This document shows, one piece after another, positions 8,141-63,711 of a DNA stretch of 64,000 bases. The stretch lies in IMG/VR virus record IMGVR_UViG_3300037400_001705, one strand, 5' to 3'. The position numbers were made by a program, and so were the translations under genes. The stretch is from an uncultured virus (IMG/VR IMGVR_UViG_3300037400_001705). Lineage: Duplodnaviria; Heunggongvirae; Uroviricota; Caudoviricetes. Every line of letters starts with the position of its first letter. Within the stretch, counting starts at the first letter, position 1. Under the pieces are notes generated by a model. That model worked only from the letters and a program-made list of their open reading frames with translations. It searched no databases and was not told the origin of the DNA.

Positions 8141-8407
8141 TCATAACCCTTCCTCTTCCACCGCCTCTGCATCCTCTGGCTCCTGTTGTTTCAACTCCGC
8201 TATCTCCTGCTCGATGGCATTGATGCGGTCACGCCACTGCTGCCGCTGCTGGTGTAGCGAGCTGGCATCGTATGGCAGTCCATCGCCAGCGGCCTGCGCC
8301 TCGGCACACTTGATGATTTTGTAGTCACCACCGGCAAGTCGGGCTTCCAGATTCATCTTCTCGGTGTAGAGCAGATTCATCTTCTCATTAATTTCTGAAT
8401 TTGTCAT
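8141..8407 (-). CDS. small tail-fibre-associated hypothetical protein
   Basis: DYKIIKCAEAQ..LPYD..LHQQRQQWRDRIN. Confidence 0.7.
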   Translation of the reverse strand: MTNSEINEKMNLLYTEKMNLEARLAGGDYKIIKCAEAQAAGDGLPYDASSLHQQRQQWRDRINAIEQEIAELKQQEPEDAEAVEEEGL

Positions 8408-9614
8408 TTGTTTTAATTTTTAAGTTATACTTATGGTTCATTCTTGATTTCCAGTTATATTGGGGCTTGCATACGACACACTGACTCTGCTCATCCCATT
8501 CCATGTAGCGTCCCCATTCGGTCATTATTATTTCTCGTAGCAGACAGAGCCGCTTATGGCTTGTGCGGCCTTTCAGCAGTCCCGTGTAGCTGTTTACCGG
8601 CGATAGCAGGCGGTCAAGCCACCGTTCTTTGTCGGACATTCTATTTAATTCCTCTATCCGTCCAATGGCGCGGCGCCACGTCTTGTCGTTCAGGATAATA
8701 CGGAATGGGTGGATATGGCTTCCCAGGAACTCTACGCCGTGCCCGTATGGCTGGTCGTAGAATTTCTTTTCGTTGAGCTTTACGCCTTTTGTGGCAAACC
8801 GCTGCCGAAGTGTCGGAATCAGTGATAGTGCATATTGGTGAAGCCGTTCGGGTACTATCATAACGATGTCATCCACAAAACATACCACATGCAGACCGCA
8901 TTCTTCCGTTAGCCAGCGTATGTCATCGTTGATGTACAACCCCATTGCTGTTTGCCATATCAGCCTACCGATAGCCGCGCCCACTCCTTCGGGCTTGCGG
9001 AGTATCGACTTTTCAGGGTCTATGTGTTCTTTCCAGAAGTAGGCAGGCGTGCGCTTCTCGCAGTGGGCTGCAGGATTGCAGTGTATGGCTACCATTGTGA
9101 GCCACTTTAGGTACGCCTTGCGCTCCTCGTCGACATCCATCGCGTCTATCACGCTGTCTACACATTGTTCGGCGTGATTCCATAGAGCATTAGGAAAGTA
9201 GCCCTTCAGGTCTATCTTGATGATACGGCATGGTTGGGTATAGCCCTGCGACACCTCGTGGATATGTTCTATCAGTTGGTTGATGGCCGACTGTGATCCG
9301 TACCCTACGCGGTTGTTATAGGTATAGGGTGACAGCACCTTGTCGGCCAATGGTATCACCTCTTCGCAAATCTCGTGGTCTATGATACGTCCGCGTAGTT
9401 CGGTGGCCATAATCTCCCGCCACCTTGGGATAGAAGTAAGGAAGGTGTAGTTGTGGTGGATTCGCAGCGTGCGCTCCTCGCGTTCGCGGTGGTCGCGGAC
9501 AAGGTTCGACACCCACGACATTTCATACGTCATGGCATCGCGTCCGTAACGCTTATTCCTTCGGGTGTCAAAGTAGACATCGACAAGGTGCGCAAATCGC
9601 TGTTTCTCCTTCAT
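8388..9614 (-). CDS. DGR reverse transcriptase
   Basis: RIIDH, IKIDLKGYF, FVDD catalytic motif, GVEFLG; start set at MKEKQRF because the longer ORF begins inside TR. Confidence 0.93.
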   Translation of the reverse strand: MKEKQRFAHLVDVYFDTRRNKRYGRDAMTYEMSWVSNLVRDHREREERTLRIHHNYTFLTSIPRWREIMATELRGRIIDHEICEEVIPLADKVLSPYTYNNRVGYGSQSAINQLIEHIHEVSQGYTQPCRIIKIDLKGYFPNALWNHAEQCVDSVIDAMDVDEERKAYLKWLTMVAIHCNPAAHCEKRTPAYFWKEHIDPEKSILRKPEGVGAAIGRLIWQTAMGLYINDDIRWLTEECGLHVVCFVDDIVMIVPERLHQYALSLIPTLRQRFATKGVKLNEKKFYDQPYGHGVEFLGSHIHPFRIILNDKTWRRAIGRIEELNRMSDKERWLDRLLSPVNSYTGLLKGRTSHKRLCLLREIIMTEWGRYMEWDEQSQCVVCKPQYNWKSRMNHKYNLKIKTNDKFRN

Positions 9615-9647
9615 AGTCGTAGCGTTTTTCTGATTTCTGTGTAAATT

Positions 9648-9765
9648 CGTGACCGCCTGAGACCGATTCTTGTTGTTCACGTTGTTGTTGTTGAGGTTGC
9701 CGTTGGTGCCGTTGAAATTCCAACTGTTGTTGGTGTTGTACCTCTGAGCAAACCACCGGTTGACG
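9648..9765 (-). repeat. DGR template repeat (TR)
   Basis: 118-bp ungapped match to 10419-10536; AAC-rich; all 17 mismatches fall at TR adenines. Confidence 0.96.
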
Positions 9766-48025: not shown

Positions 48026-48058
48026 GGGACGGGGAGAAATCCCCGCCCTATCTTTTTT
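48026..48058 (+). terminator. intrinsic terminator
   Basis: GGGACGGGGA-GAAA-TCCCCGCCC-TATCTTTTTT. Confidence 0.7.
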
Positions 48059-48065
48059 GATACCA

Positions 48066-48131
48066 TTTCAAAAATCCCCTGACGAGTCTTTGAGAATTAA
48101 GACGAAACACCTGGCGTGTCGGGATCTGAAA
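48066..48131 (+). ncRNA. hammerhead ribozyme (type I)
   Basis: Stem I ATCCC/GGGAT, core CTGACGA, stem II GTCTT/AAGAC, GAA, stem III ACAC/GTGT, GUC cleavage triplet ending at 48120. Confidence 0.9.
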
Positions 48132-48193
48132 AATCTCCAGTGTATTGTCCGACTGAACGAACGGACTGAACGAATAAAACGAACGAACGATTT

Positions 48194-48583
48194 ATGAGAA
48201 CGAACGAACAACTGGCCCGAACGAACGAGCCGAACAACCGAACGACTAACGATGCTGCCAGACAGCTTCGCAGACGTCAGGCAAAGAGAAATGAGAATGT
48301 ACGGAGAGCGATTTTAGACGCTATCGAGAGTACGATTCCGTATGCTCCGCGCCTGATTGAGTTCCCGAACGAGATTGTAGTACGAACGAAGTACGAGAAC
48401 CACGCTATTTTCCGCGCCAAGTATCTGCGAACGAGTACGCATTTCCCCGGCATTGTTCCAGAGCTGGTGAACGATAGCGGTGGCTACATGCTGATAACGT
48501 GGTTGACGTTTGGCTCTCTGCTGAGATTGCTCAAGGAAGTACGACAGGGCAATGAGATTAAGAATTTCGATTTCTTCATGTAA
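48194..48583 (+). CDS. hypothetical protein between the two ribozymes
   Basis: ORF of 129 aa; N-terminus encoded by AACG repeats. Confidence 0.65.
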   Translation: MRTNEQLARTNEPNNRTTNDAARQLRRRQAKRNENVRRAILDAIESTIPYAPRLIEFPNEIVVRTKYENHAIFRAKYLRTSTHFPGIVPELVNDSGGYMLITWLTFGSLLRLLKEVRQGNEIKNFDFFM

Positions 48584-48594
48584 ACGATACGATT

Positions 48595-48726
48595 ATGAAG
48601 TACGTACAGAAATTCAGGGTTGCCTATTGGTACATTGTATTGGACGGCAAAGAGATTAGGTCAAACAAGTACGAAGGGACAGGTTATCGCCCAAAGATTG
48701 AAAGCGACCTGATTAGAATAGATTAA
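48595..48726 (+). CDS. 43-aa hypothetical peptide
   Basis: MKYVQKFRVAYWYIVLDGKEIRSNKYEGTGYRPKIESDLIRID; stop abuts the twister. Confidence 0.45.
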   Translation: MKYVQKFRVAYWYIVLDGKEIRSNKYEGTGYRPKIESDLIRID

Positions 48727-48798
48727 CACAGAGCGACGGCAGTACGATTGTGCTGCCGGTAATGTGGCCATCCTTCGGGATGCTGGTTGCAAGCCCAG
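48727..48798 (+). ncRNA. twister ribozyme (P5-type permutation)
   Basis: CACA-GA-GCGA-[P1 hairpin]-G-T^AA-TGTG-GC-[P3 CATCC TTCG GGATG]-CTGG-TTGC-AA-GC-CCAG. Confidence 0.88.
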
Positions 48799-48799
48799 A

Positions 48800-49450
48800 C
48801 GAACAACATTCAAGCGGTTAGAGCGTATGCGGAGCCTGCGAAGTACGCAAGTACGATGAACAGAGAGAGCTGCAGCCGTTACGTAGACGAAACCGAGGTG
48901 AACGAGTTTCACGTAGGGGAGTAGTTGAGCCGACCTGGAAAGATGGTGCAAGGGCTACGTTTTAGGACGTCCCCAAGATGGCTTTGAACAATTTATATTA
49001 CATGATTGATTCTCGCAGTTGATTGCGAGTACGATATAGAGTTGGCTACCTATCTCGAGTACGACTGTAGAAATGCAGTACGATTTATCAGAGGATAATT
49101 CGTGGTGGTTCCCGTCGAAAGGTACGATAACACATTTAATCACTTTAGGATGAATCGGGCCGTGTACTTGTGGAGTACGATGACCCCACCGCTACAGACG
49201 AATTAGATGTTTGTCTGGACGGATGGTGGAATCTTGCGCCAAAGTACGATGAACGGCTGCAATGAAAGATATTACGAGGTGCGAGACCTCAGCATAAAGA
49301 ACGGCCTGACAGATGACCAAATCTGTCACATTCCCTCGGTTGGGGCAACGACGGCCTACATTGTTAGGAAAGTCCCAGGTGAACGAAAGACGATAAAGAA
49401 CGAAGAGGGAGAGACTACGGGAGAGAGTGGAATTACATCTACTCTCTCTT
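48800..49450 (+). ncRNA. candidate large structured ncRNA 1
   Basis: No convincing ORF; many hairpins and long-range complementarities. Confidence 0.6.
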
Positions 49451-49475
49451 ACTATTAACCAAATATTGTACGATT

Positions 49476-49706
49476 ATGAAAAGAAAGCATTTCAGAATGA
49501 TTGCAGGCATCATCCTGCATCCCGTGAGAATCCTCGTTGCACATTATTACCGCAACACGTATCAGAACGTCATCCGTCGCAACATTGCCGAACGTTGGCA
49601 TTGGAAGAACTACGACAGGATGCACCACATGAGCGAGGTTACAGGTACGGCCTACACGAAGAGCGACCTTTACGGCAAGCTCATGGAAGAAACCTGCATC
49701 TATTAG
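49476..49706 (+). CDS. hypothetical protein
   Basis: ORF bounded by repeat elements. Confidence 0.75.
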   Translation: MKRKHFRMIAGIILHPVRILVAHYYRNTYQNVIRRNIAERWHWKNYDRMHHMSEVTGTAYTKSDLYGKLMEETCIY

Positions 49707-49756
49707 CCTCTCGCAGCCTTGAACGGCTGCACCACTAACCGAAAAAAGCAACAATT

Positions 49757-49954
49757 ATGAAGAAATTCCTACAAATCTCAAAGAATGTTTTGAGTATGAG
49801 TGTTATTGTACTCATCAGTTTGGCAATCTGCTCCATTGTGGCATTGGCCATCCTCTACGTGTTCGGTATCAATAATACGACGCTTCGGGCTGGTGCCTGC
49901 ATCGTATTCTTTGGCACTATCATCGTGGCCCTTATGTTGGGCGCGTTCGATTAA
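49757..49954 (+). CDS. small two-TM membrane protein
   Basis: Two hydrophobic helices. Confidence 0.7.
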   Translation: MKKFLQISKNVLSMSVIVLISLAICSIVALAILYVFGINNTTLRAGACIVFFGTIIVALMLGAFD

Positions 49955-50024
49955 CGGTCTTACGGATTTTTGTGGCGAAAATGCTGCAAAAATCGCTCAT
50001 GTTTCACCAAATAGAATGAACGAT

Positions 50025-50303
50025 ATGGATAAGTTAAAGAAATTGCAGATGTTAGCCCGTGTTCTCAGAGAGCACCGCGGCTACAAAGGTAACAAAGAGT
50101 CAGACCATTCCAACAGGTTTGACTTCAAGTTTGACAAGAAGGGCGACATTTGTGGGCCGTACATAGACATCTATAATGCCGAGAAGGGTGCAAATCTCTT
50201 CCTGTGGCCTGATTTTATCGAGCTGTGTCACGGCTTGGGTCTGTCTCATTACATTACCTATGACCAATTTGACCTCAAAGAGGTGGTGCTACACATCTAC
50301 TAA
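50025..50303 (+). CDS. hypothetical protein
   Basis: MDKLKKLQML...; bounded by elements. Confidence 0.7.
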   Translation: MDKLKKLQMLARVLREHRGYKGNKESDHSNRFDFKFDKKGDICGPYIDIYNAEKGANLFLWPDFIELCHGLGLSHYITYDQFDLKEVVLHIY

Positions 50304-50358
50304 GTCTCTCGGCTCCTGATGGAGCCACATATTTTTCACCAATTTAAAAAACGAACGT

Positions 50359-50613
50359 ATGAAGAACAAAGTTTTAAGAACAACGGCAATTTTCCGTTGC
50401 ATCGTGACGCTCAAGAACGGAGCGCATCGCATTGTAAGGACAACGATTGACAATGTAGCCAAGTTGAATGCTGCACTTTTGCAGTACCGCGACTTTGGTC
50501 TGCTTAACAATCGCTATTCAGATTTCATGAAAGAGCTGGGCCTGGCTGCCTACGATGTTCTGTCCTGCAAGGTCATCAACGAACGGACAGGACAAGAATT
50601 GATGACGATTTAG
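50359..50613 (+). CDS. hypothetical protein
   Basis: ORF bounded by elements. Confidence 0.75.
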   Translation: MKNKVLRTTAIFRCIVTLKNGAHRIVRTTIDNVAKLNAALLQYRDFGLLNNRYSDFMKELGLAAYDVLSCKVINERTGQELMTI

Positions 50614-50670
50614 CCTTTATAGGGTGGGGACGTTTTGCCGCCATCCTACCACAAACCAATAACTTTCACG

Positions 50671-50838
50671 ATGGTAATAAATAAAGTAATCCGCGATAAG
50701 AGCGGTTTTTGGTATGTTGGCAGACTTTTGACCGCAGATCCAGACGGCGTGCCCGTCTTTCAGCGCCTGTCAGAACTCTATTGCCACAAGGGATGGGCAT
50801 TGAATTTCGCCCGTCGTATGTGTATCAAGCTATCGTAG
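50671..50838 (+). CDS. hypothetical protein
   Basis: MVINKVIRDKSGFWYV... Confidence 0.65.
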   Translation: MVINKVIRDKSGFWYVGRLLTADPDGVPVFQRLSELYCHKGWALNFARRMCIKLS

Positions 50839-50911
50839 CCTTTTCGGCATGGGTGGGTTTTATTTCGTTCGTTCGCCTGCCTGTGCTGCTATTAACCAAA
50901 TCTTTATTGTT

Positions 50912-51337
50912 ATGTTAAAATCAGAATTTTATGACAGAACGCACGTATCTCTCTCGGATGAAGAGTATGGTGCAGTAGAGAACATCTACAATCGTGTCCA
51001 GATGGACAAAGACGAGTTTTGCAGACTGTGGCTTGACAATCGCGACAACAAAATCATCAACGAGCTTGTGTCGTATGCCATGGGTGTCGAGAAAGCGAAT
51101 GCCGCATTAGACAAAGTAAGCAAAGAGCTGGAAGAGAAGTTGGCTGGAGAGTTAGCAGAGAGACAGAAGCACCTGCTGGACTTTGGCCGCAAGGTTGTTT
51201 CCTATCTTGACGACGAATCACGGCTCTACGACTTTTGTGTAGAAGAGTTCGGTCAGAACTTTGTCATCAAGGTCAAGCTGGAGTGTAACATCGACCTTGA
51301 CACCAACGAACGCGAGTATCTTGCAAAGATGCTGTAG
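50912..51337 (+). CDS. hypothetical protein
   Basis: MLKSEFYDRT...MDKDEFC. Confidence 0.8.
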   Translation: MLKSEFYDRTHVSLSDEEYGAVENIYNRVQMDKDEFCRLWLDNRDNKIINELVSYAMGVEKANAALDKVSKELEEKLAGELAERQKHLLDFGRKVVSYLDDESRLYDFCVEEFGQNFVIKVKLECNIDLDTNEREYLAKML

Positions 51338-51393
51338 TCTATTGAACTGGTAACAATTTGTCACCAGTTCACTATTCACCAACAATTTACAAT

Positions 51394-51609
51394 ATGAACA
51401 AAAAGAATTTATTCAAAAAACAGGCTAATGTTGCTGAATGTACCATCGTTTGGAAAGACTCTGGCGAGAAAGAAAATGTAATCATCAGCCTTGACGGCAG
51501 CGACAACGACGGCATTTTCTTTGTCTGCAATTCAGAGGAAGAGTTTGCTCAACTGACAGAAGATTCCAGCGGCGAAGATTTTGACATTGTTACATTCAAG
51601 ATTTTGTAA
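51394..51609 (+). CDS. hypothetical protein
   Basis: MNKKNLF...DDGIFF-like acidic domain. Confidence 0.7.
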   Translation: MNKKNLFKKQANVAECTIVWKDSGEKENVIISLDGSDNDGIFFVCNSEEEFAQLTEDSSGEDFDIVTFKIL

Positions 51610-51671
51610 GTCTCTCTATCATTTTCGTGACCTCACGAAAATGGTACATTATTCACCAAATATTATTACTT

Positions 51672-52046
51672 ATGAAGATTTTGATTGAGACACGCTCTCC
51701 AGAGAACAACAACCTCCTGCATCCTGTATATAAGCAGGTGATAGGAGAGAGAGAAATTCCGTGTGCTGACGTAAAGAAGATTGGCAACTGTTGGTATGCT
51801 ATCAATTATGGTGGCCACATCGTTACAGGCGTGGAACCTGAGCGTATCAAGGAAGTACGCACGAATAGCGGTCTACTTTTCAATGTACATTTCGACCACA
51901 CGGGTTATCTCCAAGGAAAGAAATTCTGTTGTGAGGCGTACAGAAATCCGAACAACGGCTACGGATCGTGTTATTGCACCCTTGACGGTATCATGGACTA
52001 CATTCACCAAGAGGAACGATTTGAAGCACGTCTCTCGCAGTCTTAG
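51672..52046 (+). CDS. hypothetical protein
   Basis: MKILIETR...; stop lies inside the hairpin of an element. Confidence 0.75.
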   Translation: MKILIETRSPENNNLLHPVYKQVIGEREIPCADVKKIGNCWYAINYGGHIVTGVEPERIKEVRTNSGLLFNVHFDHTGYLQGKKFCCEAYRNPNNGYGSCYCTLDGIMDYIHQEERFEARLSQS

Positions 52047-52076
52047 GACTGCACTATTCACCAAACATCAAAGAAT

Positions 52077-52313
52077 ATGGAGAAACTTTTGAGAAAACAG
52101 CTCCATCTTGTCGGCTCAGCTGGCACGTTGGAAAACCTTTGTGAGTACGCTAAGAAAAGACTTTACTGGTCGCAGTTCGAAACCTCTGAGAGTACACGCT
52201 ACGAATCCCGTATTGGTAAGGTGTACGATGTGAGTAGTTCTAACGGCCTTGTTTCTGATATGGTCATCATTCAGGGTAAAGTACGTTGTTCACTCTTTCG
52301 GATAGAGAAGTAA
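52077..52313 (+). CDS. hypothetical protein
   Basis: ORF. Confidence 0.7.
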   Translation: MEKLLRKQLHLVGSAGTLENLCEYAKKRLYWSQFETSESTRYESRIGKVYDVSSSNGLVSDMVIIQGKVRCSLFRIEK

Positions 52314-52316
52314 GCT

Positions 52317-52553
52317 ATGATGACGGCTTTCAGAAGCTCTCTTATATGGAGAGATACCGTTTCCTATGCGGTTAGCATCTTCTCTTTCATTATCCGTGGA
52401 GAGGGAGAAATGAGCGGACGAAAGTTTGCTGAACATATCCGTAATTATTGCGGATGCTCTGACGAAAAACAAAAGGTCATTCTTTCCGAGATTGAAAAGC
52501 ACATCGTGAGGATTGAGGCCACCTACAGAGGAACAAAGTATTACTGCGTATGA
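52317..52553 (+). CDS. hypothetical protein
   Basis: ORF. Confidence 0.6.
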   Translation: MMTAFRSSLIWRDTVSYAVSIFSFIIRGEGEMSGRKFAEHIRNYCGCSDEKQKVILSEIEKHIVRIEATYRGTKYYCV

Positions 52554-52708
52554 ATAACGGTAAAGTCAAGTGGCTCACGTTCACGGACAATCCCCAATGG
52601 GGTCGTTACTTCATTGGCGAGAGTGATTCTAAGGCAGAAGCCCACACCAAAGGAAAGGCGGCAAACAAAGGCCGCTACGTTGTTGAACGAAGAGTAAAGT
52701 TCAAGTAG
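52550..52708 (+). CDS. 52-aa hypothetical protein
   Basis: MNNGKVKWLTFTDNPQWGRYF...; ATGA coupling; stop is the TAG of an element. Confidence 0.6.
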   Translation: MNNGKVKWLTFTDNPQWGRYFIGESDSKAEAHTKGKAANKGRYVVERRVKFK

Positions 52709-52762
52709 TCTTTTGCGGCTCTTGCATGAGCCGCACAAACAACCCTTTAAAACTGAAAGAAT

Positions 52763-53650
52763 ATGGAAAGAAGAGAAAAAGTAAATGCAATCAGAAGTCT
52801 GGCTGTAAGTAGCGGACGGATGATTAGTATGGACCCCGAAAGCTGGGGCGAGCATCGCCTGAACGCTTTGGAATCTGAGCTGCAGGAGTTTCTTGCAAAA
52901 ATTCCCGAAGAGGTACGTGACGAGTACGAAGATAAGTACATCGGCAAATACAAAGAATGGCTCTATGCTATGAGCCGTTGTGTCTCTCAGATGGTGACGG
53001 GTGCAGGCGGTTGGACGTCTTCCATGCTTCGACGCAAGCAGAAGAACGACCAGTACGAGCGTAATGCCCGTGAACGTCTTGATAAGTGGGCCGAAAAGGT
53101 CATCAAGCGCTGCAATCGTCAAGAACGTCTGACCGGCTGGGCTGAGGTTGAACGCTTGCAGGAAAAACTCGACAGCCTTAAAGAATCCCAGGAGATGATG
53201 AAGGCTGCAAACAAGATTATCCGCAACAATAATCTTGCAGAGGTTGAAAAGGTTGACGAGTTGGTTTCCCTTGGCTTTAACGAACAAACTGCATTGAAGC
53301 TCATGGAGCCAGATTTCTGCGGACGAATCGGCTTTGCCTCTTACGCTTTGAGCAACAACCTTGCCACCATCAAGGACACGGAAGCCAAAATCAAGCGTCA
53401 TGCTGCAATGGCAGAGCGTGCGAGAGGTGGTGACGAGGTTCACGATTACCCTTGGGGAAAGCTGGTTGTTGCTTTCGGCGACGAACGCTACCGCTTCATC
53501 TTCGACGGAAAGCCAGCCCCGAACGTCATCAGCCTCATGAAGTCGAACGCTTTCAAGTGGAGCCCTTCAAACTCAGCGTGGCAGCGTCAGATTACCGCCA
53601 ACGCAAAGTATGCCGTGAAGCGTATGATTGAAGAGCTCAACAACATGTAG
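52763..53650 (+). CDS. DUF3560-like / polyvalent-protein-associated domain protein
   Basis: GFASYALSNN.ATIK; RFIFDGKP...LMKSNAFKWSPSNSAWQRQIT.NA. Confidence 0.7.
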   Translation: MERREKVNAIRSLAVSSGRMISMDPESWGEHRLNALESELQEFLAKIPEEVRDEYEDKYIGKYKEWLYAMSRCVSQMVTGAGGWTSSMLRRKQKNDQYERNARERLDKWAEKVIKRCNRQERLTGWAEVERLQEKLDSLKESQEMMKAANKIIRNNNLAEVEKVDELVSLGFNEQTALKLMEPDFCGRIGFASYALSNNLATIKDTEAKIKRHAAMAERARGGDEVHDYPWGKLVVAFGDERYRFIFDGKPAPNVISLMKSNAFKWSPSNSAWQRQITANAKYAVKRMIEELNNM

Positions 53651-53702
53651 CCTTTAGCCCGCCTTGCATGGTGGGTACCACAAACCAACAAATATTTGAA
53701 TT

Positions 53703-54017
53703 ATGAGAGTAACATTAGCACGGAATTGTGGCAACAATATTGTTGAACACATTATCTTTGACGACCCTTACAGGGCACAAAATTTCTACGGGACATATTG
53801 CGGCAAGGTAGCTGGCGTCGTGAAGTGCGAAAGCATCTACACTATCGGTGCAGGCGAACACAAAGAAGAAAACTGCTTCAACTGCCCGCTGCATCACTGC
53901 TGCCTATGCGAGAACCGCAAGTTCACAGACGAGAACGGCACGAAGTTCTACGTATCTGTGTGGGACACCACAAAGAAAAGCAACGAACAGAATGCTATCA
54001 AGAAACTCGAATTTTAA
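53703..54017 (+). CDS. Cys-rich hypothetical protein
   Basis: ORF. Confidence 0.7.
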   Translation: MRVTLARNCGNNIVEHIIFDDPYRAQNFYGTYCGKVAGVVKCESIYTIGAGEHKEENCFNCPLHHCCLCENRKFTDENGTKFYVSVWDTTKKSNEQNAIKKLEF

Positions 54018-54085
54018 GAGTAGTCTTTCACTATTTCGTTGACTCCGACGAAATAGTACTATTAACCAATAAAGCAAAAAAAACT

Positions 54086-54259
54086 ATGGAAGAAAAGACA
54101 ATTAAAGTAGAGGGCGAAATAACCCTCAACCTGCACGGAGGAAGCCTATGCACGGCCCTGCTGCGCATCAATGGCGAACAAAAGTATTTTACCTCCCAGC
54201 TGGGTAGCTCTGATCTCATGCAGAAAATCGGTAAACATATCCAAACTCATAGCGTATGA
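54086..54259 (+). CDS. hypothetical protein
   Basis: MEEKTIKVEGE... Confidence 0.6.
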   Translation: MEEKTIKVEGEITLNLHGGSLCTALLRINGEQKYFTSQLGSSDLMQKIGKHIQTHSV

Positions 54260-54543
54260 AGATTGAATTATTTACAGGAGCGAAGACAATCCAAGTAGAT
54301 TGTTTTGCCTGCGAAGAAAAGACGAGGTATCGCATTGCGGCTTATTATGGTGGTGTGTATATCAAAACGCTCTACACCTGCAACAGTGAGATAGAACGTC
54401 ACGAAATGATTTGCAACTACATGAGCCAAACGCACAATGCAGGATGCAAAAACTCTTCTCTTTACGTACGTATTGGCAGTGGCCTTTGCTTCTTCTATTG
54501 CGATGGCCTGATGATTATGGAAGAAGAAATCTATGACGTCTAA
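54256..54543 (+). CDS. hypothetical protein
   Basis: ATGA coupling. Confidence 0.65.
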   Translation: MKIELFTGAKTIQVDCFACEEKTRYRIAAYYGGVYIKTLYTCNSEIERHEMICNYMSQTHNAGCKNSSLYVRIGSGLCFFYCDGLMIMEEEIYDV

Positions 54544-54554
54544 AACATGCTGAT

Positions 54555-54884
54555 ATGAATATAAGTTATTATCTCTATCTCTCAACGGCAAACTGTCAGG
54601 AATCTCACTCTCTTAGAATCTGCTCGGATGCAAATTTGACAGTCATTCGTGATGCCATTTCAAACATTATACGTGCCATGTTTGAAAGACGGCCGCATTG
54701 GTATTCCGAGGAATACGTCAACTGTCAAGCTGACGAAATGACCATGCTGTTTGCTGACCTTCTGAAAGATGGCTCGCCCATCACTAAACGCAAATATCCA
54801 TTCTATCATCTTGGCTTTATCATCACAAATTATCCAATGTGGCCAGACAACAACGGTGGGTATCTGAGCGACTTTCATGTATAA
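54555..54884 (+). CDS. hypothetical protein
   Basis: ORF. Confidence 0.7.
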   Translation: MNISYYLYLSTANCQESHSLRICSDANLTVIRDAISNIIRAMFERRPHWYSEEYVNCQADEMTMLFADLLKDGSPITKRKYPFYHLGFIITNYPMWPDNNGGYLSDFHV

Positions 54885-54946
54885 GTCTCACACCATTTCG
54901 CTGACACCAACGAAATGGTACACTTTAACCCTAAAAACAAAAGAGT

Positions 54947-55129
54947 ATGACAAAAACAATCTTTATGAAAGTCCGCGTCGATTACGATGATGACGGACGT
55001 TACGGCTCATACGAGGCCGACAGCATGGTTGCCGACATGGTTGTAGAGCGTGCGCAGGCACACAACCACACCGTAGAGAACGGCATACGCATTGAGAAAA
55101 TCACTAATCATGGGATAGATAGTTATTAA
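54947..55129 (+). CDS. hypothetical protein
   Basis: ORF. Confidence 0.65.
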   Translation: MTKTIFMKVRVDYDDDGRYGSYEADSMVADMVVERAQAHNHTVENGIRIEKITNHGIDSY

Positions 55130-55148
55130 CCCTTAAACTTATGGGAAT

Positions 55149-55484
55149 ATGGAAAACAATGCAGTAAACAAGGACGCTCAGCGCATCCATGAAATTACGG
55201 GCCGACCAATGGCCGAGTGTGAAGAGCAGGCAAAGCAGATTGCCGAGTGTGTACGTGAAATGTGTGACCGTGTGGTGGAGTTCTACTATCTTAAGAAAGA
55301 CGGCACTACACGGCAGGCTTTCGGTACGCTTCAGCAGGAAGTTGTGATTGCTCATGTGACAGCTGACTCCATGAGAGAGCCAAAGCCTGACCTCGTAACG
55401 TATTTCGATACTGAGGCGCAGGCATGGCGTTCTTTCAAGAAAGTCAACTTCAAGAACTACGTTAAGCAGGAGCCACAAGCATGA
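55149..55484 (+). CDS. WYL-like SH3 beta-barrel protein (DUF2693-like)
   Basis: VEFYYLKKDGTTRQAFGTL...TYFDTEAQAWRSFK. Confidence 0.8.
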   Translation: MENNAVNKDAQRIHEITGRPMAECEEQAKQIAECVREMCDRVVEFYYLKKDGTTRQAFGTLQQEVVIAHVTADSMREPKPDLVTYFDTEAQAWRSFKKVNFKNYVKQEPQA

Positions 55485-55618
55485 CGGATTTAGCCAAAAT
55501 CCTGTGGTGGATTTTTATCGCTTCTCTCACGCTTGGCGTCTGGACACTACCAATCGTAGTGGTTCTCGTCATCATCCAAATGTATCTCAAAAAGAAGCAC
55601 CCGAATTGGTGCAAGTAA
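55481..55618 (+). CDS. small membrane peptide
   Basis: MTDLAKILWWIFIASLTLGVWTLPIVVVLVIIQMYLKKKHPNWCK. Confidence 0.6.
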   Translation: MTDLAKILWWIFIASLTLGVWTLPIVVVLVIIQMYLKKKHPNWCK

Positions 55619-55681
55619 AGTCTTAAGCCGTGCAAAGGACACGGCACTATTTATTGTCTAACCGTTTAAATAGTAAGAATT

Positions 55682-56590
55682 ATGAAGAAAGAAAAGAATG
55701 CCTACACCGTAGAGAATGCGAAAGTTCCAGTAGTACGCTACGACTATTACAAGCGTGAAACAAAAGGCTATCTGCATATCGACGGCGGGCTGGTCTACGT
55801 CACCGTCACGGCTATCTGCATCAACTTCAAGAAGCAGCAGATCACGACGGTTCTCACGGACAAGAACGGCAAGGAGTACAAGCAGGAGGGCACATACAAC
55901 CTCTATGATTCTCCTTCGAAGTTCGAGAATAACAGCCCCATGGAGCCGACAAAGAACTTCACGTACAATCTCATTAAGAACGCTGACTGGGGCAGGCTTG
56001 CCGAGTGTGCAGTATCCAACATCGACGAAGAGGATGGCAAGAAATCTTGCTACATCAACGTCTGGACGTTCGAGAACGGAGCAGCCCAACAGGTTCCAGC
56101 CGTCATCAACGAAATTTCCTGCGACGCTTACGAGAAGTGGCACCTAACGGATGGCTCGCTGCCCGCCAAGTTTTGGGAGAGCCGAGAAGATGCCTTTGCC
56201 TGCAACGAGTACCAGGTTACCGACAGCGACGGCGAGGTGTTTGTGGAGCAGGGCTACCAGATGCGCCTTCTCCCAACTCCTGCCCAGTGGGTCATCATCA
56301 AGCAGATGAGAGCACTCTTCGAGAAAGCCAAGGAAGCAGGACTTTACTTCGTTTGGGACAGAGCGTATTGCGGCAATCTCAAGGCTGTAAACTATCAGAA
56401 CGTCTACACCTTCGATTACGACGCTGAGAATTTCGAGGGTGGAGACCTCATCCCTGTCAATAAGGCTGCGCTTGCTGACACTGGCATCGACTTCTATGAC
56501 TATTGTGGCGACGAGAGTGACAGGTATGCGTTTGCCCTCAATCCCATGGCACGTCAGAAAAAGGAATGGCTTAAGAACCATGCCAAGTAA
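55682..56590 (+). CDS. hypothetical protein
   Basis: ORF of 302 aa. Confidence 0.85.
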   Translation: MKKEKNAYTVENAKVPVVRYDYYKRETKGYLHIDGGLVYVTVTAICINFKKQQITTVLTDKNGKEYKQEGTYNLYDSPSKFENNSPMEPTKNFTYNLIKNADWGRLAECAVSNIDEEDGKKSCYINVWTFENGAAQQVPAVINEISCDAYEKWHLTDGSLPAKFWESREDAFACNEYQVTDSDGEVFVEQGYQMRLLPTPAQWVIIKQMRALFEKAKEAGLYFVWDRAYCGNLKAVNYQNVYTFDYDAENFEGGDLIPVNKAALADTGIDFYDYCGDESDRYAFALNPMARQKKEWLKNHAK

Positions 56591-56647
56591 GTCTCTAAGG
56601 TGGCCTTGCATGGCCACCACAATTATTAACCAATAAATTGTAAGAGT

Positions 56648-57061
56648 ATGAATATTTCAATTAAACCAAATGATTACGTTCGGCCAACGGAGGTGCGTGA
56701 CGAAGTTGTGAAAAAAGTCTGCAATCATATTGTTTCGTATTTAGACAGACTTGAAGTTGACATGGAGATTAGTTTGCAAGGTGCGCATCCTGCTTTATTC
56801 TTTGGAGAAAAGGATGAGGACATGACACACTACAAGAATATGGCAAAAACTGTGCTCTCCACAGAAGAAAATTATATGAACGTGTACTATTACACACGGG
56901 TAAGAGGTTGCGAAATGCGCAAGGTTTTCAAACTGCTGCAAGAAGCTGGCTACTACATCTACTCTCTTAACGAAATGGGGTGGAGTTACGCTATTTCCAA
57001 GTACCCATACCGCAATATGTACAAAGCTGAGCGTGTAGAGTTTAAGTCATTTATTGATTAG
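56648..57061 (+). CDS. hypothetical protein
   Basis: ORF of 137 aa. Confidence 0.8.
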   Translation: MNISIKPNDYVRPTEVRDEVVKKVCNHIVSYLDRLEVDMEISLQGAHPALFFGEKDEDMTHYKNMAKTVLSTEENYMNVYYYTRVRGCEMRKVFKLLQEAGYYIYSLNEMGWSYAISKYPYRNMYKAERVEFKSFID

Positions 57062-57099
57062 TCTTTCTCCCTGCTTGCAAGCAGGGAACAACAAACCAA

Positions 57100-57580
57100 G
57101 TTTTGTTCGCTACGAGCAATCTCACGGCTCGCAGTTGCCATCAGTGAGTGACAGATGGAAAGACCTCCGTCCAGCTCTCCACTATCCGCCGGACGTAAAA
57201 TAAAGGTAGTGCGGTTCTGTGACACAACAAAGTACACGATGTGCGGCAGACGGCTCAGGAAAAGAGGCATAAAACCCGTCGAAACCACTTAGGGACGTAA
57301 AGGCAGTGGGGGTATGCAACCACCAAGAGAGTAACATCGGCTGACGAAGGAAAAGCAGGGTGCTCCTGAGACCATAGAGATGGATAGCGTTAGACCACAA
57401 CTGCGCGAACAACAACTAAAGGCTACCGACGCAGGTATAGTCGTAAAAGAATCCCGCAACCACCGAGCGTAAAAGGCCGACAGACCATAACTGCGGAAAT
57501 CAAAGGCTACCGTTGGACGATAACGCAAAGCGTAAGCCATGGAAAAACTCTTCACGAAATTTCGTGTTGGAATTGGCAAA
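57100..57580 (+). ncRNA. candidate large structured ncRNA 2
   Basis: No plus-strand ORF; hairpins, long-range pairings and internal repeats; bounded by two elements. Confidence 0.55.
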
Positions 57581-57636
57581 AGTCTCATGGGGAATGTGGA
57601 CGCACATTCCCTACTACTAACCAACTACACAAGATT

Positions 57637-58155
57637 ATGGCAAAGCTAAATGTCTACTCATTTGCCGACTATAACGCTGTCCGCTATCTTGCCCATCAAG
57701 TGAAGGATGGAAACGACAGCAGTATCAGTCGCGCAGCTCGTTACATGGCGCATCTTGTGTCGTGTATCGCTGACGAGCGGTGCGTTATCGTTCCTGTGCC
57801 TGGTCGTATAGGTGTCGCTCTCTACACAAAGGTTCTTGCCGAACGTATCTCTGAGCTGACGGGTGTGCGTGTCATGGACTGCTTAAAATGCAAGCCACAC
57901 ATGACGCAGTATCTCCGCAAGTACCGCTATGGTCTTGACAGCATGCGACCGATGGACTTTTCAGTTACCGAAAATGTTCCCTCAAACGTTATCCCCATTC
58001 TCATTGATAACGTCCTCGACACGGGAACAACCGTCATGTCCGCTATGCAGGCTCTTGACCGCTCTCTCTACGCTGTTGTGCTGGGCAACACACACAACTT
58101 CCTGCATTTCAATTATCCTATCAACCTCTACGAACAATCTCTCACATGGCAATGA
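57637..58155 (+). CDS. ComF-like phosphoribosyltransferase-fold protein
   Basis: VIVPVP; ILIDNVLDTGTT PRPP-binding loop. Confidence 0.8.
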   Translation: MAKLNVYSFADYNAVRYLAHQVKDGNDSSISRAARYMAHLVSCIADERCVIVPVPGRIGVALYTKVLAERISELTGVRVMDCLKCKPHMTQYLRKYRYGLDSMRPMDFSVTENVPSNVIPILIDNVLDTGTTVMSAMQALDRSLYAVVLGNTHNFLHFNYPINLYEQSLTWQ

Positions 58156-58364
58156 GCGTCAAGTACGAAGCCGTCTGCGAATCGGGCAATACGGATGCTG
58201 ACACCATCCGAACGTTCCCTGACCGCGAATGCGCTGACCTCTTTTGTCAGATTTGGCGTGCCTCGCATCCTGGCACCCATGCTTGGGTACGAGAGACACA
58301 ACACCGCCACATGGAACACAAAACTCTTGGCAGTTCCGTAATGACGGTCGAACTCTACGATTAG
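58146..58364 (+). CDS. hypothetical protein
   Basis: ORF. Confidence 0.65.
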   Translation: MAMSVKYEAVCESGNTDADTIRTFPDRECADLFCQIWRASHPGTHAWVRETQHRHMEHKTLGSSVMTVELYD

Positions 58365-58424
58365 CCTCAGTGTGCAGCGTGATTTTGTCACGCTGTTCCC
58401 AATAACCCCTAAATATATCAGAAT

Positions 58425-58745
58425 ATGACAAAAGCAGACAAATTGTACTTGGAATTGAAGCAGGGACACCCTAACCACCTGATTCTTATCAGACGTAATG
58501 ACTTCTATGAATGCAGGGAAGATGATGCAAAGATTGTGTCAAATGTTCTTGGTATCACATTGTCAAGACACACTACTGGGCTAAAGCATTTCTTCTGCTG
58601 TTTTCCGTTTCATGCGCTCGACACCTATCTGCCTAAGCTTGTCCGTGCAGGCTATAAGGTTGCCATCTGCGACCAGCTGGACGAACCAAAGAAACCCGTC
58701 AAGCGCGGTATTACAGAACTCGTCTCTTCAAACCCACTGAAATAG
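58425..58745 (+). CDS. stand-alone MutS domain I protein
   Basis: YLELKQ.HP..LILIR..DFYE...DA...LGITL; FP.HALDTYLPKLVRAGYKVAICDQ. Confidence 0.88.
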   Translation: MTKADKLYLELKQGHPNHLILIRRNDFYECREDDAKIVSNVLGITLSRHTTGLKHFFCCFPFHALDTYLPKLVRAGYKVAICDQLDEPKKPVKRGITELVSSNPLK

Positions 58746-58779
58746 GTGGGTTCACTATTAACCAAACAACATCATCATT

Positions 58780-59475
58780 ATGAAAAGAAAACTATCACTA
58801 CCCGTAAACTGTTGGGCAGCGGAAGATATTCCGTCCAACAAACTGATTGAAGCCAATTCCGACCATCTGAGTAATTCAGAATTACTCTCTATCATCATTG
58901 GTAATGGCTCCAACACAGAGAATAGTGTAGAACTGGCACGCCGCATCCTGTCAACGTGTGACAACAAACTGTCCAAACTGGCAAAGATGACGCCTAACGA
59001 CCTCTCTTGCTTTCATGGCGTCGGCAAACAGAAAGCGGCTAAGATTATGGCAGCTCTCGAACTCGGCCGTCGCCGTCAGGAAGAGCAGGCCATTGAAAAG
59101 CCAGACTTGGGTACGGCTGTACGCATCTATAACATGATGCACCCTATCATGGCAGACTTGGAGAAAGAAGAGTTTTGGGTGCTTCTCGCAAATCAGAACT
59201 TCAAACTGATAAAGAAATTCCGACTGTCGCAGGGTGGCATCTCTGAGGTGGCCGTGGATATTCGTATCGTCATAAAGGAAGCTGTTCTCAACAACGCTAC
59301 CATCTTGGTGGTCTGCCACAATCATCCGTCTGGTTCTCTACGCCCGAGCAAGTTTGACGACGACCTGACCTTTAGCTTACAGAAAGCCTGTCAACTCATG
59401 CGCATCAAGTTTATGGACCACGTTATCGTGACCGACGGAGCGTATTATTCCTATCACGAACAGGGCAAACTCTGA
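58780..59475 (+). CDS. radC: RadC/JAB-domain protein
   Basis: LSNSELLSIII, HhH GVG..KA, EEFWV, HNHPSG...PS..D, DHVIV. Confidence 0.92.
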   Translation: MKRKLSLPVNCWAAEDIPSNKLIEANSDHLSNSELLSIIIGNGSNTENSVELARRILSTCDNKLSKLAKMTPNDLSCFHGVGKQKAAKIMAALELGRRRQEEQAIEKPDLGTAVRIYNMMHPIMADLEKEEFWVLLANQNFKLIKKFRLSQGGISEVAVDIRIVIKEAVLNNATILVVCHNHPSGSLRPSKFDDDLTFSLQKACQLMRIKFMDHVIVTDGAYYSYHEQGKL

Positions 59476-61358: not shown

Positions 61359-62378
61359 ATGAAAGAACTGAGAGGTCTCACCTATGAGCAAAACAAGAAA
61401 TTCCGCTTCGCTATCGACAGCGGATATTTCGACGATTGGGAACAGGACCCGCGAAAATGGAAACATACTTTCGCAGGTGCATTCCTATGGAAATACCCAC
61501 ATAGGGTAAAAATCCTCAATATCCTCAAAGATATTGTAGGAAACGTCCCAACGTGGGACGACCTGAACGACGAGGTATTGCGCGACCTCGTAGACGAACT
61601 GACAGGACAGAATCTTGCCACCTCTTCCATACGAACGATGTGTGCCGAACTAAAAGCACTACTGAACAGCAACAAGCGCAAACTGCCGTTCAACGAGTTT
61701 GGTGATATTCTCTCCGTCAAGGGTACGGCTACACAATCCGTTTACCTTACGAGCCGCGAAATGGAAATGTTCATGGCTTATAAGCCAACGACGGACACGG
61801 AGCATTTCGTACACCGAAACTTTTGCGTCAGCATGATGACAGGCGCACGACTGATAGACACGCTGAAGCTGACTATCTCTAACTGCGACATTGAAACAAA
61901 CATGCTCTCGTATGTTCCACAGAAAACGCCCGGGCTGGTGGTCTATGTCCCCGTGGACGAACGCCACAACCTACGCTTCTATCTTGCCGACGTTTGCAAG
62001 GACGAACGATGTCTCGACACATACAACGAGGTCCTGCGTCGCATCTGCAAGGTGATAGGCATTGATACGGTGTGCACCGTGGTCAAGGCTGGCAAGAGCC
62101 GAACGGCACCAAAGTACGAACTTGTCAGCTCACACACAGCCAGACGCACGTTCGCAACGAATCTCTATCTCGCTGGTGTGTCGCTCGAAGACATTGCTAT
62201 GATGATGGGCCACGGCAAGAACATCGACACCACAAAGCGCTACATCTGTGCCGAACGCACACTGAATCCCAGTGTTATGTCTTATTTCCAGAAGCCAGAC
62301 AAACCCGCCACACCTCAGGCAGCGTCCTACACGGATGAAGAACTCGACGCCTACGAGGATGCTCTTCTCGACGAATAG
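61359..62378 (+). CDS. tyrosine recombinase (second, no arm-binding domain)
   Basis: TGAR, QKT, HTARR, MGH, TKRY catalytic residues. Confidence 0.9.
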   Translation: MKELRGLTYEQNKKFRFAIDSGYFDDWEQDPRKWKHTFAGAFLWKYPHRVKILNILKDIVGNVPTWDDLNDEVLRDLVDELTGQNLATSSIRTMCAELKALLNSNKRKLPFNEFGDILSVKGTATQSVYLTSREMEMFMAYKPTTDTEHFVHRNFCVSMMTGARLIDTLKLTISNCDIETNMLSYVPQKTPGLVVYVPVDERHNLRFYLADVCKDERCLDTYNEVLRRICKVIGIDTVCTVVKAGKSRTAPKYELVSSHTARRTFATNLYLAGVSLEDIAMMMGHGKNIDTTKRYICAERTLNPSVMSYFQKPDKPATPQAASYTDEELDAYEDALLDE

Positions 62379-62439
62379 TTTCCTGCACTTCTTTCCTATT
62401 TGCGGTGTAGGAAACCATTTATTTTCCTATTCCCCGTCT

Positions 62440-63711
62440 TTAAGGTTCAGTATGGTGCTGTATCACAGCACCCAGAACCACATATTCAACCACTCTTCTC
62501 ACAGCGTTGTCTATCTTGCGCTGGTCATGGGCGATATAACGTGCCGTAACGCGCTTACTCCAAGAATGCCCGAGACACTGGCCAATAGTCTGCTCACTGA
62601 TGTCAAGGTCGTTGGCGGCTATTGAACCGAACGAGTAGCGTGCTGAATAGAGCGTGATGCCAGGGCAGAGTGGGGCATACTCCATCTTTCGGAGTTTGCC
62701 TACTTTGTCCTTTACCTTCCAGCTTGACCCAACCTTCTGCAACGCTTCGTTGGCTTGCTTGGAGAACGAGTGATAGTCACTCCTGCAGTCCATAAAACTT
62801 GTCAGCCACCCTTCCCTTGACGGATAGCGGTCAATAATCTCCTGCGCCTCTGGCAGTACTGGCAAGGTGATGACGCGAATCTTTGTCACACCTTCCTTGT
62901 TCGTTTTTTTTCTGACGAAAGACAGGTGCCCATCCTTGATGCAGTCCGCTTTGAGTGACAACAAATCTACAGGGTTGATGCCAGCAAGGTAGAACGACAA
63001 AAAGAAGAAGTCCACGTAAGGCCGTTGCCACGGTTCGCATGGATAATCTCTTAGCCGTCTCAGGTCCTCAGCGGAAAGATTGTTGGGAACTGTCTCTTCC
63101 TCTCTGATGTGATAATCCAGGAAAGGATAGTTTGTGGTCATTCCCTTGCGTCTGGCCCAGTTGAATACGGCTCTGATATTCCTCAGTTCCTTGGCCACGC
63201 CATTTATCTTCATACCCTGCTTGATGCAATAATCATAGAACGAGTCCATCCATTCCCTATTAATGGCATCAAGGCCGCAGTTCCCTGCGGTTTTCCACAG
63301 GGCGTTAAACGCTTCCACCTTCCGCGCCGTTATCCTATACAAAATAGCCGTTTGTTCCCTTTTTGTGGCGGCGAACGATTGGATAGCATCTGGCAGGGCG
63401 AACGGCTTGGTTTTCTTCTGAACGCCGAAAACGTCGTTTAAAATCCTCTCTTTGAGTTCTTGATTGCTCAGCCCTGCAATATCCCTCTCAATACATAAAG
63501 AGGTCACAGCGGCAAAATATTTGCCTAATAGGATAGTCTTACGCTTCCAGTCTCTGTCAGACTTTGGAAACGACATGTCAACCAGCTTGTCACATGTAGT
63601 AATGCCGGTATTCACAAAAAACCTGCCCTGCTTCGTACTGACTATGAAGTACACAGGAAACGAGCCGTCTTTGTTGGCTCTCGTTGTGTTTACATAGGGA
63701 TAAATCTTCAT
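62440..63711 (-). CDS. int: phage integrase (tyrosine recombinase with arm-binding and SAM-like domains)
   Basis: KDGSFPVY N-terminus, LRNIRAVFN, RKKT, YSARYS, LGHS, TARY; adjacent to att site. Confidence 0.9.
   Translation of the reverse strand: MKIYPYVNTTRANKDGSFPVYFIVSTKQGRFFVNTGITTCDKLVDMSFPKSDRDWKRKTILLGKYFAAVTSLCIERDIAGLSNQELKERILNDVFGVQKKTKPFALPDAIQSFAATKREQTAILYRITARKVEAFNALWKTAGNCGLDAINREWMDSFYDYCIKQGMKINGVAKELRNIRAVFNWARRKGMTTNYPFLDYHIREEETVPNNLSAEDLRRLRDYPCEPWQRPYVDFFFLSFYLAGINPVDLLSLKADCIKDGHLSFVRKKTNKEGVTKIRVITLPVLPEAQEIIDRYPSREGWLTSFMDCRSDYHSFSKQANEALQKVGSSWKVKDKVGKLRKMEYAPLCPGITLYSARYSFGSIAANDLDISEQTIGQCLGHSWSKRVTARYIAHDQRKIDNAVRRVVEYVVLGAVIQHHTEP

Follow-up and report, generated by a model that had tools for sequence, protein, structure and literature searches.

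What would two self-cleaving ribozymes of different classes be doing 640 nt apart on the same strand of a phage genome, one either side of a pair of short genes? The question is raised by a stretch of DNA 64,000 nt in length (hereafter 'the window') from an uncultured virus of the class Caudoviricetes (IMG/VR record IMGVR_UViG_3300037400_001705). A reading made from the sequence alone had placed a hammerhead and a twister ribozyme in this order around two open reading frames (ORFs) and a set of short repeats; had proposed that the RNA between the two cuts is released and could close into a circle; and had suggested that the twister also defines the 5' end of a large non-coding RNA (ncRNA) downstream. 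The answer that we favor is plainer. Both ribozymes are probably processing signals in one plus-strand phage transcript, and the RNA that they would release is a small mRNA whose contents change from genome to genome. The features of the locus are collected in Table 1.

The two motifs proved to lie where the sequence-only reading had put them, on one strand, with cuts predicted after 48120 and after 48760. The conserved core of the hammerhead is complete—C3UGACGA9 at 48079-48085, G12AA at 48104-48106, the A15.1-U16.1 pair at 48107/48119, and C17 at 48120—and its helices are all formed: 5 bp in helix II, 4 bp in helix III and, in the open-ended stem I, 5 bp (48074-78/48121-25) followed by an outer 5 bp (48066-70/48127-31). 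A custom descriptor for type I hammerheads matched this site and no other in the 64 kb, both strands included, and only 1 of 200 locally shuffled windows yielded any hammerhead match at all. Hammerheads with the identical stem II and loop are present in unannotated DNA of cr272_1, cr273_1, cr131_1 and MT836189. Across four phage homologues, stem III lengthens from 4 to 9 bp and alters in sequence, yet is still paired, and in MT836189 stem I carries a compensatory change. The exact pattern of the 30-nt core, with stem II and its loop, recurs in viral contigs that number at least 119, range from 6 to 282 kb and include crAss-like genomes. Flanking sequence was fetched for 80 of these loci, which hold 90 cores. 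Stems I and III are both paired, with U16.1-H17, in 81 of the 90, and this is so across 47 distinct stem III sequences and 50 distinct stem I sequences. Stem II was fixed by the search pattern, so its invariance in this family carries no information. Taken as a whole, the hammerhead is a genuine sequence motif, with cleavage predicted after C48120.

The downstream ribozyme is the better match to its model. The twister scores 46.1 bits against a gathering threshold of 37.6, over the full length of the model (positions 1-58), with an E-value of 2.1e-6 in a search of the whole window. Its history can be followed in relatives of the phage, which were retrieved with exact DNA words taken from the downstream ncRNA: one locus, L124, and six further metagenome loci, so that the comparisons made here draw on five to seven close relatives. 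L124 and L125 are the same 75.6-kb viral record, which has direct terminal repeats and is rated complete (it is also termed G001). No relatives came from searches of viral contigs with the 129-aa ORF between the ribozymes or with the 206-aa protein encoded upstream. The relatives are syntenic with the window, and their identity to it differs by region: 79–81% in the hairpin that follows the upstream gene, 75–83% in the cassette ORF, 80–86% in the twister, and 92.5–93.6% in 48996-49480 for six of them (98% over the 161 nt covered by the partial locus L129).

The twister is kept in all five of the relatives that cover its site. Among the six sequences, P1 comes in three versions, P3 in two and P4 in two, every one of them fully paired, and the core strings CACAGAGC, UAAUGUGGCC and GUUGCAAGCC are identical throughout. 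By inspection, bases that could form the two pseudoknots by complementarity (GCG with UGC; GC with GC) can be picked out between the loop of P4 and the junctions, which we take to be the twister pairing scheme; the columns concerned do not vary among the six sequences. A Twister-P5 profile search of the relatives' genomes did not pick up their downstream twister, and cmscan gives it a weak twister-P1 reading of 22.7–27.3 bits. In our own parsing the helices expected of type P5 are all paired, and the relatives' ribozyme appears to belong to that type and to share the same cut site. One peculiarity of these relatives may be mentioned. After P4 they have a second P2'-like strand, CACAUAGCACGGG (L124 2581-2670, and the equivalent place in L126, L128, L131 and L129), which permits an alternative fold of type P1 with the same cut site; two competing folds are thus possible there. 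The window has no such strand.

At the upstream slot the relatives differ from the window altogether. Where the window has a hammerhead, all four of the relatives that cover the place (L124/L125, L126, L128 and L131) have a twister-P1-like motif, approximately 14 nt 3' of a hairpin and U run homologous to those of the window. One slot that is filled by two ribozyme classes suggests that it is the cut itself, rather than the type of ribozyme, that selection has kept. Both ribozymes also stand at gene boundaries. The hammerhead follows the hairpin that closes the upstream gene, and a TAA stop codon directly abuts the start of the twister, CACAGAGC, in three contexts (the window, L124 and L129), in which three different ORFs end. 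The U run ends a mere 7 nt before the hammerhead, too little for a promoter to fit between them.

Transcript processing explains these observations best, given the placement at gene boundaries, the exchange of ribozymes in the upstream slot, the compensatory changes in the stems, and the want of space where a promoter might lie. If we read the locus correctly, transcription would continue through the hairpin that closes the 206-aa gene, and the hammerhead would then cut after C48120, leaving the upstream mRNA with a hairpin-protected 3' end. The twister, which starts one base after the stop codon of the cassette, would cut after U48760. Two other RNAs would result: a cassette mRNA of 640 nt, made up of the GAACGA leader, the 129-aa gene and the 43-aa ORF, with a 5'-OH at one end and a 2',3'-cyclic phosphate at the other; and a structured ncRNA of about 0.7 kb, with a 5'-OH from the twister and a 3' end at the hairpin 49419-49450. 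Cleavage would thus uncouple the fates of three RNAs, their stability and their translation alike. Since the motifs lie on the same strand at gene boundaries, and both slots are kept in relatives, the outcome to be expected is that 48121-48760 is set free as an RNA of its own, with such ends. Co-transcription, cleavage, and an effect on the fate of the RNAs are steps that we infer.

Several points weigh against this reading. The hammerhead scores 21.6 bits with the Rfam model Hammerhead_1 (RF00163), against a gathering threshold of 34, with an E-value of 0.1 in a 4.5-kb search, and it is not reported at E≤1 when Rfam is searched over the whole 64-kb window. Its score is low because the long loop of stem II and an insert in stem III are costly to it. 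The twister-P1-like motifs of the relatives score 43.7–53.4 bits (E-values from 4e-7 to 1.8e-10), all of them under the gathering threshold of 67.2. The hairpin and U run ahead of the hammerhead resemble an intrinsic terminator and, if they act efficiently as one, little transcript would reach the ribozymes. The RNA data consist of contigs, in which the ends of RNAs are invisible, and none lies over 48121-48760, so that cleavage is something we infer. The complete relative has just the two twisters described here, by the three ribozyme models that were tried, and processing of this kind is therefore not a general, gene-by-gene punctuation of the genome. Finally, strand-specific arrays of AGUACGA and GAACGA motifs span the cassette, the apex of twister P1 and the ncRNA, and plain processing does not explain them.

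Could one or both motifs be no longer active—leftovers of a mobile ribozyme module, without function at this locus? The low Rfam score of the hammerhead is compatible with such decay, and the occurrence of its core in so many contigs of very different phages suggests horizontal spread. The cultured relative BI-TP1 (71.6 kb), moreover, appears to do without any of this: it has no match to twister-P1, Twister-P5 or Hammerhead_1 at E≤1 and no match to the ncRNA, and its four copies of AGTACGA in 71.6 kb form no motif array. Against this view, all the core positions of the ribozymes are intact, and both slots have been kept, with compensatory changes and with the replacement of one ribozyme by another class rather than its decay. 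The wider hammerhead family tells the same story, in that nine-tenths of its cores (the 81 of 90 above) are paired in both flanking stems in spite of the many sequences that these stems adopt. We consider it quite unlikely that the motifs are relics.

What lies between the cuts is less constant than the cuts are. The two ORFs of the sequence-only reading are present in the window, and so are its AACG/AGTACG repeats, which are enriched on the plus strand. In relatives of the L124 type the cassette comprises an ORF1 of 105 aa and an ORF2 of 119 aa; in L129 it comprises ORF1 and an unrelated ORF. In the window, six codons of ORF1 are fused to ORF2, making the 129-aa ORF, and the 43-aa ORF follows. 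The stretch 48580-48723 is skipped in the relatives, and in the DNA run X2 as well. We find, then, a same-strand ribozyme pair that flanks genes, with three different contents across the window and its relatives, as in ribozyme-flanked gene cassettes. Because its content varies so between genomes, the released RNA would be a small, changeable mRNA cassette and not a conserved RNA entity.

The 129-aa ORF (ORF2), judged by its pattern of substitution, is a real gene: over 106 codons it differs from L125 at 10 first, 14 second and 31 third codon positions. It has homologs in 24 protein clusters, at 56–77% identity, none of which carries a Pfam family or a name, and the window protein itself matches no family in Pfam or PHROGs. 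AlphaFold predicts a long basic helix upon a small beta-barrel, with a predicted local distance difference test score (pLDDT) of 79.7. A Foldseek comparison of this model with the PDB found nothing at E≤0.001, and the best alignment by VIA-align (wide), with a Z of 4.8, is not meaningful.

Downstream of the twister cut, the situation is reversed: conservation is at its highest where no protein is encoded. Between the twister and the hairpin at 49419-49450 no ORF is conserved—the one candidate, an 83-aa frame, is broken by single-base indels in the relatives—and the ncRNA core is conserved above the surrounding coding DNA. For seven close sequences, RNAalifold predicts 125 base pairs in the ncRNA, 8 of which have compensatory changes; no Rfam family matches it. 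RNA-library contigs from three studies (runs X22, X23 and X24) lie on 49004-49379/49418, one of them extending 107 nt further upstream, and a contig from X24 lies on 48868-48906, within the spacer. DNA may be present in an RNA library, and the ends of an RNA are not visible in contigs; these are therefore a weak sign of expression and do not prove where the 5' end lies. A promoter immediately 5' of the ncRNA core was ruled out for one relative; there an RNA contig reaches the 107 nt further upstream. The large downstream ncRNA proposed from the sequence has thus held up as conserved, structured and apparently expressed; the twister could set its 5' end, and this part of the proposal is best left at that strength.

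The repeats deserve an account of their own. The window contains 21 copies of AGTACGA where 5.6 would be expected, and none of 100 shuffles has as many as 21; 12 of the 21 fall within 48329-49249, all on the plus strand. In 48121-49300 there are 12 copies of AGTACGA against 0.08 expected, and 14 of GAACGA against 0.38, with neither motif on the minus strand. The relatives resemble the window in this respect. Counted as (A/G)GTACG(A/C), the first motif has 15 plus-strand copies in the window and 11–14 in five relatives, with none on the minus strand; GAACGA has 16 in the window and 9–19 in the five, and again none on the minus strand. The arrays persist even where the sequences cannot be aligned. 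We tried the idea that ACGA is a general translation signal and rejected it: ACGA lies within 14 nt of the start codon in five of the six genes at 47.3–50.4 kb, whereas among the 54 other genes listed only 2 have it so placed.

It is conceivable that a factor of some kind reads AGUACGA and GAACGA on the cassette mRNA, on the ncRNA and on the apex of twister P1, and that the locus is a regulated module. In variants of this idea, the ribozymes would serve to produce a sponge or a scaffold, a defined RNA with many sites; or the cutting would be controlled, by the factor or by the ribosome, which stops one base before the twister. The strand-specific enrichment would be accounted for, as would its persistence in five relatives in stretches that no longer align and the occurrence of the motif in all three reading frames of the cassette ORF. 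So would two features of the twister: AGUACGAUU stands at the apex of P1 in six of six sequences, while the stem below it changes completely, and the TAA that abuts the ribozyme recurs in three contexts. The case is weakened by the want of a reader, no such protein or RNA having been found and the cassette protein having no known fold. The protein of the 129-aa type, furthermore, is missing from the L129 cassette, which keeps the motifs; the motifs occupy no single structural context in the predicted fold of the ncRNA; and the arrays could act upon DNA instead, as binding sites near the primase-helicase genes, for example. As a whole we judge the module unlikely, and processing, without regulation of this sort, remains our preferred explanation.

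Circularization, the boldest suggestion made from the sequence, has fared less well. The hammerhead and the twister both leave ends of the kind joined by RtcB (a 5'-OH and a 2',3'-cyclic phosphate), and engineered RNAs flanked by twisters (the 'Tornado' system) are reportedly circularized in cells by this enzyme. A host RtcB-type ligase might then link G48121, through its 5'-OH, with U48760, through its cyclic phosphate, to give a circle of 640 nt, resistant to exonucleases and possibly translated. Ten of 14 control genomes encode RtcB, that of Bacteroides thetaiotaomicron among them, and a Bacteroidota host could supply it. The complete relative, on the other hand, has none of its own (0 of 1), and no RNA ligase was named among 57 window ORFs, all of which were scanned against PHROGs and 28 against Pfam. 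In the window, pairing of the first 40 nt of the excised RNA with the last 40 amounts to 6.7 expected base pairs, which might bring the ends together, but this lies within the range of shifted controls (0–8.2; 2 of 12 controls were at or above 6.4). In four relatives the figure is 0.9–2.5, and there is thus no conserved helix to join the ends. Nor does the architecture recall that of known circles: the two ribozymes are not of one class, the upstream one has been swapped, and neither is rebuilt on the circle, as happens in viroids and retrozymes. No 48760/48121 joint was found in the RNA contigs of X22, X23 and X24, which have no cover of the cassette save two chance matches of 18 letters, so that their silence bears on neither a circle nor cleavage. 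In 2011 Perreault et al. (PMC3088659) searched for products of ribozyme-flanked phage genes that were circular or spliced, and none came to light. We think it very unlikely that a circle is formed.

There is room for a more ambitious view, in which the ribozyme pair does the cutting for a larger, motif-read RNA module that controls twister cutting and cassette translation, or else the means of making a translatable circular mRNA closed by RtcB. We regard this as a long shot. If either version were true, it would be the first defined regulatory job for self-cleaving ribozymes in phages.

Table 1. Features of the ribozyme-flanked locus (positions are those of the window; parts of a feature follow it)
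Feature	Position	Strand	Basis or remark
Upstream gene, 206 aa	47380-48000	+	
Terminator-like GC hairpin, then six-U run	48026-48048; 48053-48058	+	Terminator scan; closes the 206-aa gene
Type I hammerhead ribozyme	48066-48131	+	Core and helices intact; Rfam score under cut-off
Hammerhead core CUGACGAG	48079-48086		
Hammerhead stem II	48086-48103		
Hammerhead GAAA	48104-48107		
Hammerhead stem III	48107-48119		
Hammerhead C17	48120		
Predicted hammerhead cleavage site, after C17	48120/48121	+	Sequence read with standard hammerhead numbering
GAACGA repeat tract, 9 copies	48150-48250	+	Leader and first codons of cassette ORF; in 5/5 relatives covering the tract
Cassette ORF, 129 aa	48194-48583	+	First six codons resemble the start of relatives' ORF1; residue ~23 onward resembles relatives' ORF2
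43-aa ORF	48595-48726	+	In no relative; TAA 48724-48726 directly abuts twister
Twister ribozyme, type P5	48727-48798	+	Rfam Twister-P5 (RF02684)
Twister P2'	48727-30		
Twister P1 hairpin	48737-59		
Twister UAA	48760-62		
Twister P2	48763-66		
Twister P3	48770-81		
Twister P4 with loop	48783-98		
Predicted twister cleavage site	U48760/A48761	+	Consensus UAA position in Rfam alignment
Variable spacer with AGUACG motifs	48799-48995	+	~200 nt in window, ~326 nt in L124-type relatives (alignment)
Conserved structured ncRNA core, six (A/G)GUACGA motifs	48996-49455	+	Ends in hairpin 49419-49450

The wider window is that of a tailed-phage genome in its gene content. Family scans identify a large terminase, a portal protein, a major head protein, tail-fiber-like proteins, a primase-helicase and two integrase-like genes. 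The large terminase shares 51% identity with its counterparts in three phages of about 71 kb each, Bacteroides LoVEphage, BI-TP1 and Phocaeicola phage PV4-TP1. A crAss-like label was considered when blastn matches of the region to three Suoliviridae genomes came to light; these matches span the hammerhead only and, given the terminase identity to the three phages just named, the label was dropped. Nearly all of the window DNA is present in one run labeled bovine gut metagenome, which may be its source.

Other features of the window bear upon the life of the phage more than upon the ribozymes. A reverse transcriptase gene (RVT_1, phrog_1423) at 8388-9680 on the minus strand, in the tail-fiber region, may belong to a diversity-generating retroelement, and a convergent pair of integrase-like genes at 61359-63711 suggests a temperate lifestyle like that of the related induced phage BI-TP1. 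Immediately beyond the ncRNA is a 76-aa ORF at 49476-49736 on the plus strand; most relatives skip it (49480-49736), and a similar ORF occupies the same place in L130. Eleven plus-strand genes within 49450-58780, with starts at 49476, 49757, 52077, 52763, 53703, 55149, 55682, 56648, 57637, 58425 and 58780, have 'TAACC' or 'AACC' about 20 nt 5' of the ATG and 'AAT(T)' immediately before it. This shared arrangement could be a promoter or a start signal of the phage.

How does the locus compare with systems that are already known? CsrB and RsmZ are multi-site sponge RNAs, and the ncRNA resembles them in having many copies of one short motif, on one strand, in a structured non-coding RNA. The window differs from them in the motif itself, AGUACGA/GAACGA, and in that copies also occur in coding sequence and in the stem-loop of a ribozyme.

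With respect to the company that they keep, twisters are reported, by Roth in 2014 and Weinberg in 2015, to be associated with hammerheads, other ribozymes and RAGATH motifs in bacteria and phages. Loci with the hammerhead variant of the window are of this kind: in the 20 that were scanned, of the 80 fetched, RAGATH-14 (4), RAGATH-6, RAGATH-7, hatchet (2), pistol and tRNA genes lie nearby. In an Rfam search of the 64 kb, the window gives no match to RAGATH, hatchet or pistol. Bacterial ribozymes cluster near one another and near phage genes, according to one review (PMC6765202), so that such clusters of hammerhead, twister and other ribozymes in phage DNA are well established, and a hammerhead and a twister 0.7 kb or less apart in phage DNA conform to this; the biological role of most self-cleaving ribozymes in bacteria and phages is, by the same account, still open. 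Three crAss-like genomes have same-strand pairs of ribozyme motifs 0.4–1.3 kb apart, most of them under the Rfam gathering threshold. In another locus (L041, 423-1241), three hammerheads stand each at the end of a different one of successive small ORFs. Two or three hammerhead copies, 390–925 nt apart on one strand, are also found in L016, L055, L084 and L039/L040. The possibility that the loci with several hammerheads in L041 and L084 are tandem repeats was rejected: no tandem repeat was found, and their hammerheads lie between different small ORFs. A literature search on small ribozymes in crAss-like phages and on circles made by phage ribozymes found nothing specific; it did not extend to LoVEphage.

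Viroids and retrozymes have the same end chemistry (PMC7761336), and 640 nt is close to the 600–1000 nt of retrozyme circles (PMC5680766). Unlike these RNAs, and unlike Tornado constructs, the window has no repeat units, no pair of ribozymes of the same class and no conserved helix to pair the ends, and its cargo is protein-coding and variable.

The closest precedent is to be found in prophages, in which multiple hammerheads flank individual genes or small gene groups of changing identity (Perreault et al. 2011, PMC3088659). All of the ribozymes of three such prophage arrays cut in vitro, and the processing of a long phage transcript was proposed. The likeness to our locus is considerable: a same-strand pair around a short gene block, variable genes and a processing role, and the idea of a circular product was raised there, too. 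The differences are that the pair in the window comprises two classes, with an upstream slot that holds a hammerhead here and a twister-P1-like motif in relatives; that the downstream cut heads a conserved ncRNA; and that, in the complete relative, the pair is the sole one by the three models tried. Ribozyme-flanked phage genes have been known since 2011, then, and this locus adds to them modestly. It leaves the known picture of such genes unchanged, and brings no added evidence for natural circular mRNAs. What it contributes is a clean case for comparison, with an orthologous slot that two ribozyme classes fill, a twister to which a stop codon is fused, in three contexts, and a link to a motif-rich ncRNA. 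One of the cuts would head a conserved, apparently expressed, structured RNA, and this is a concrete product to follow.

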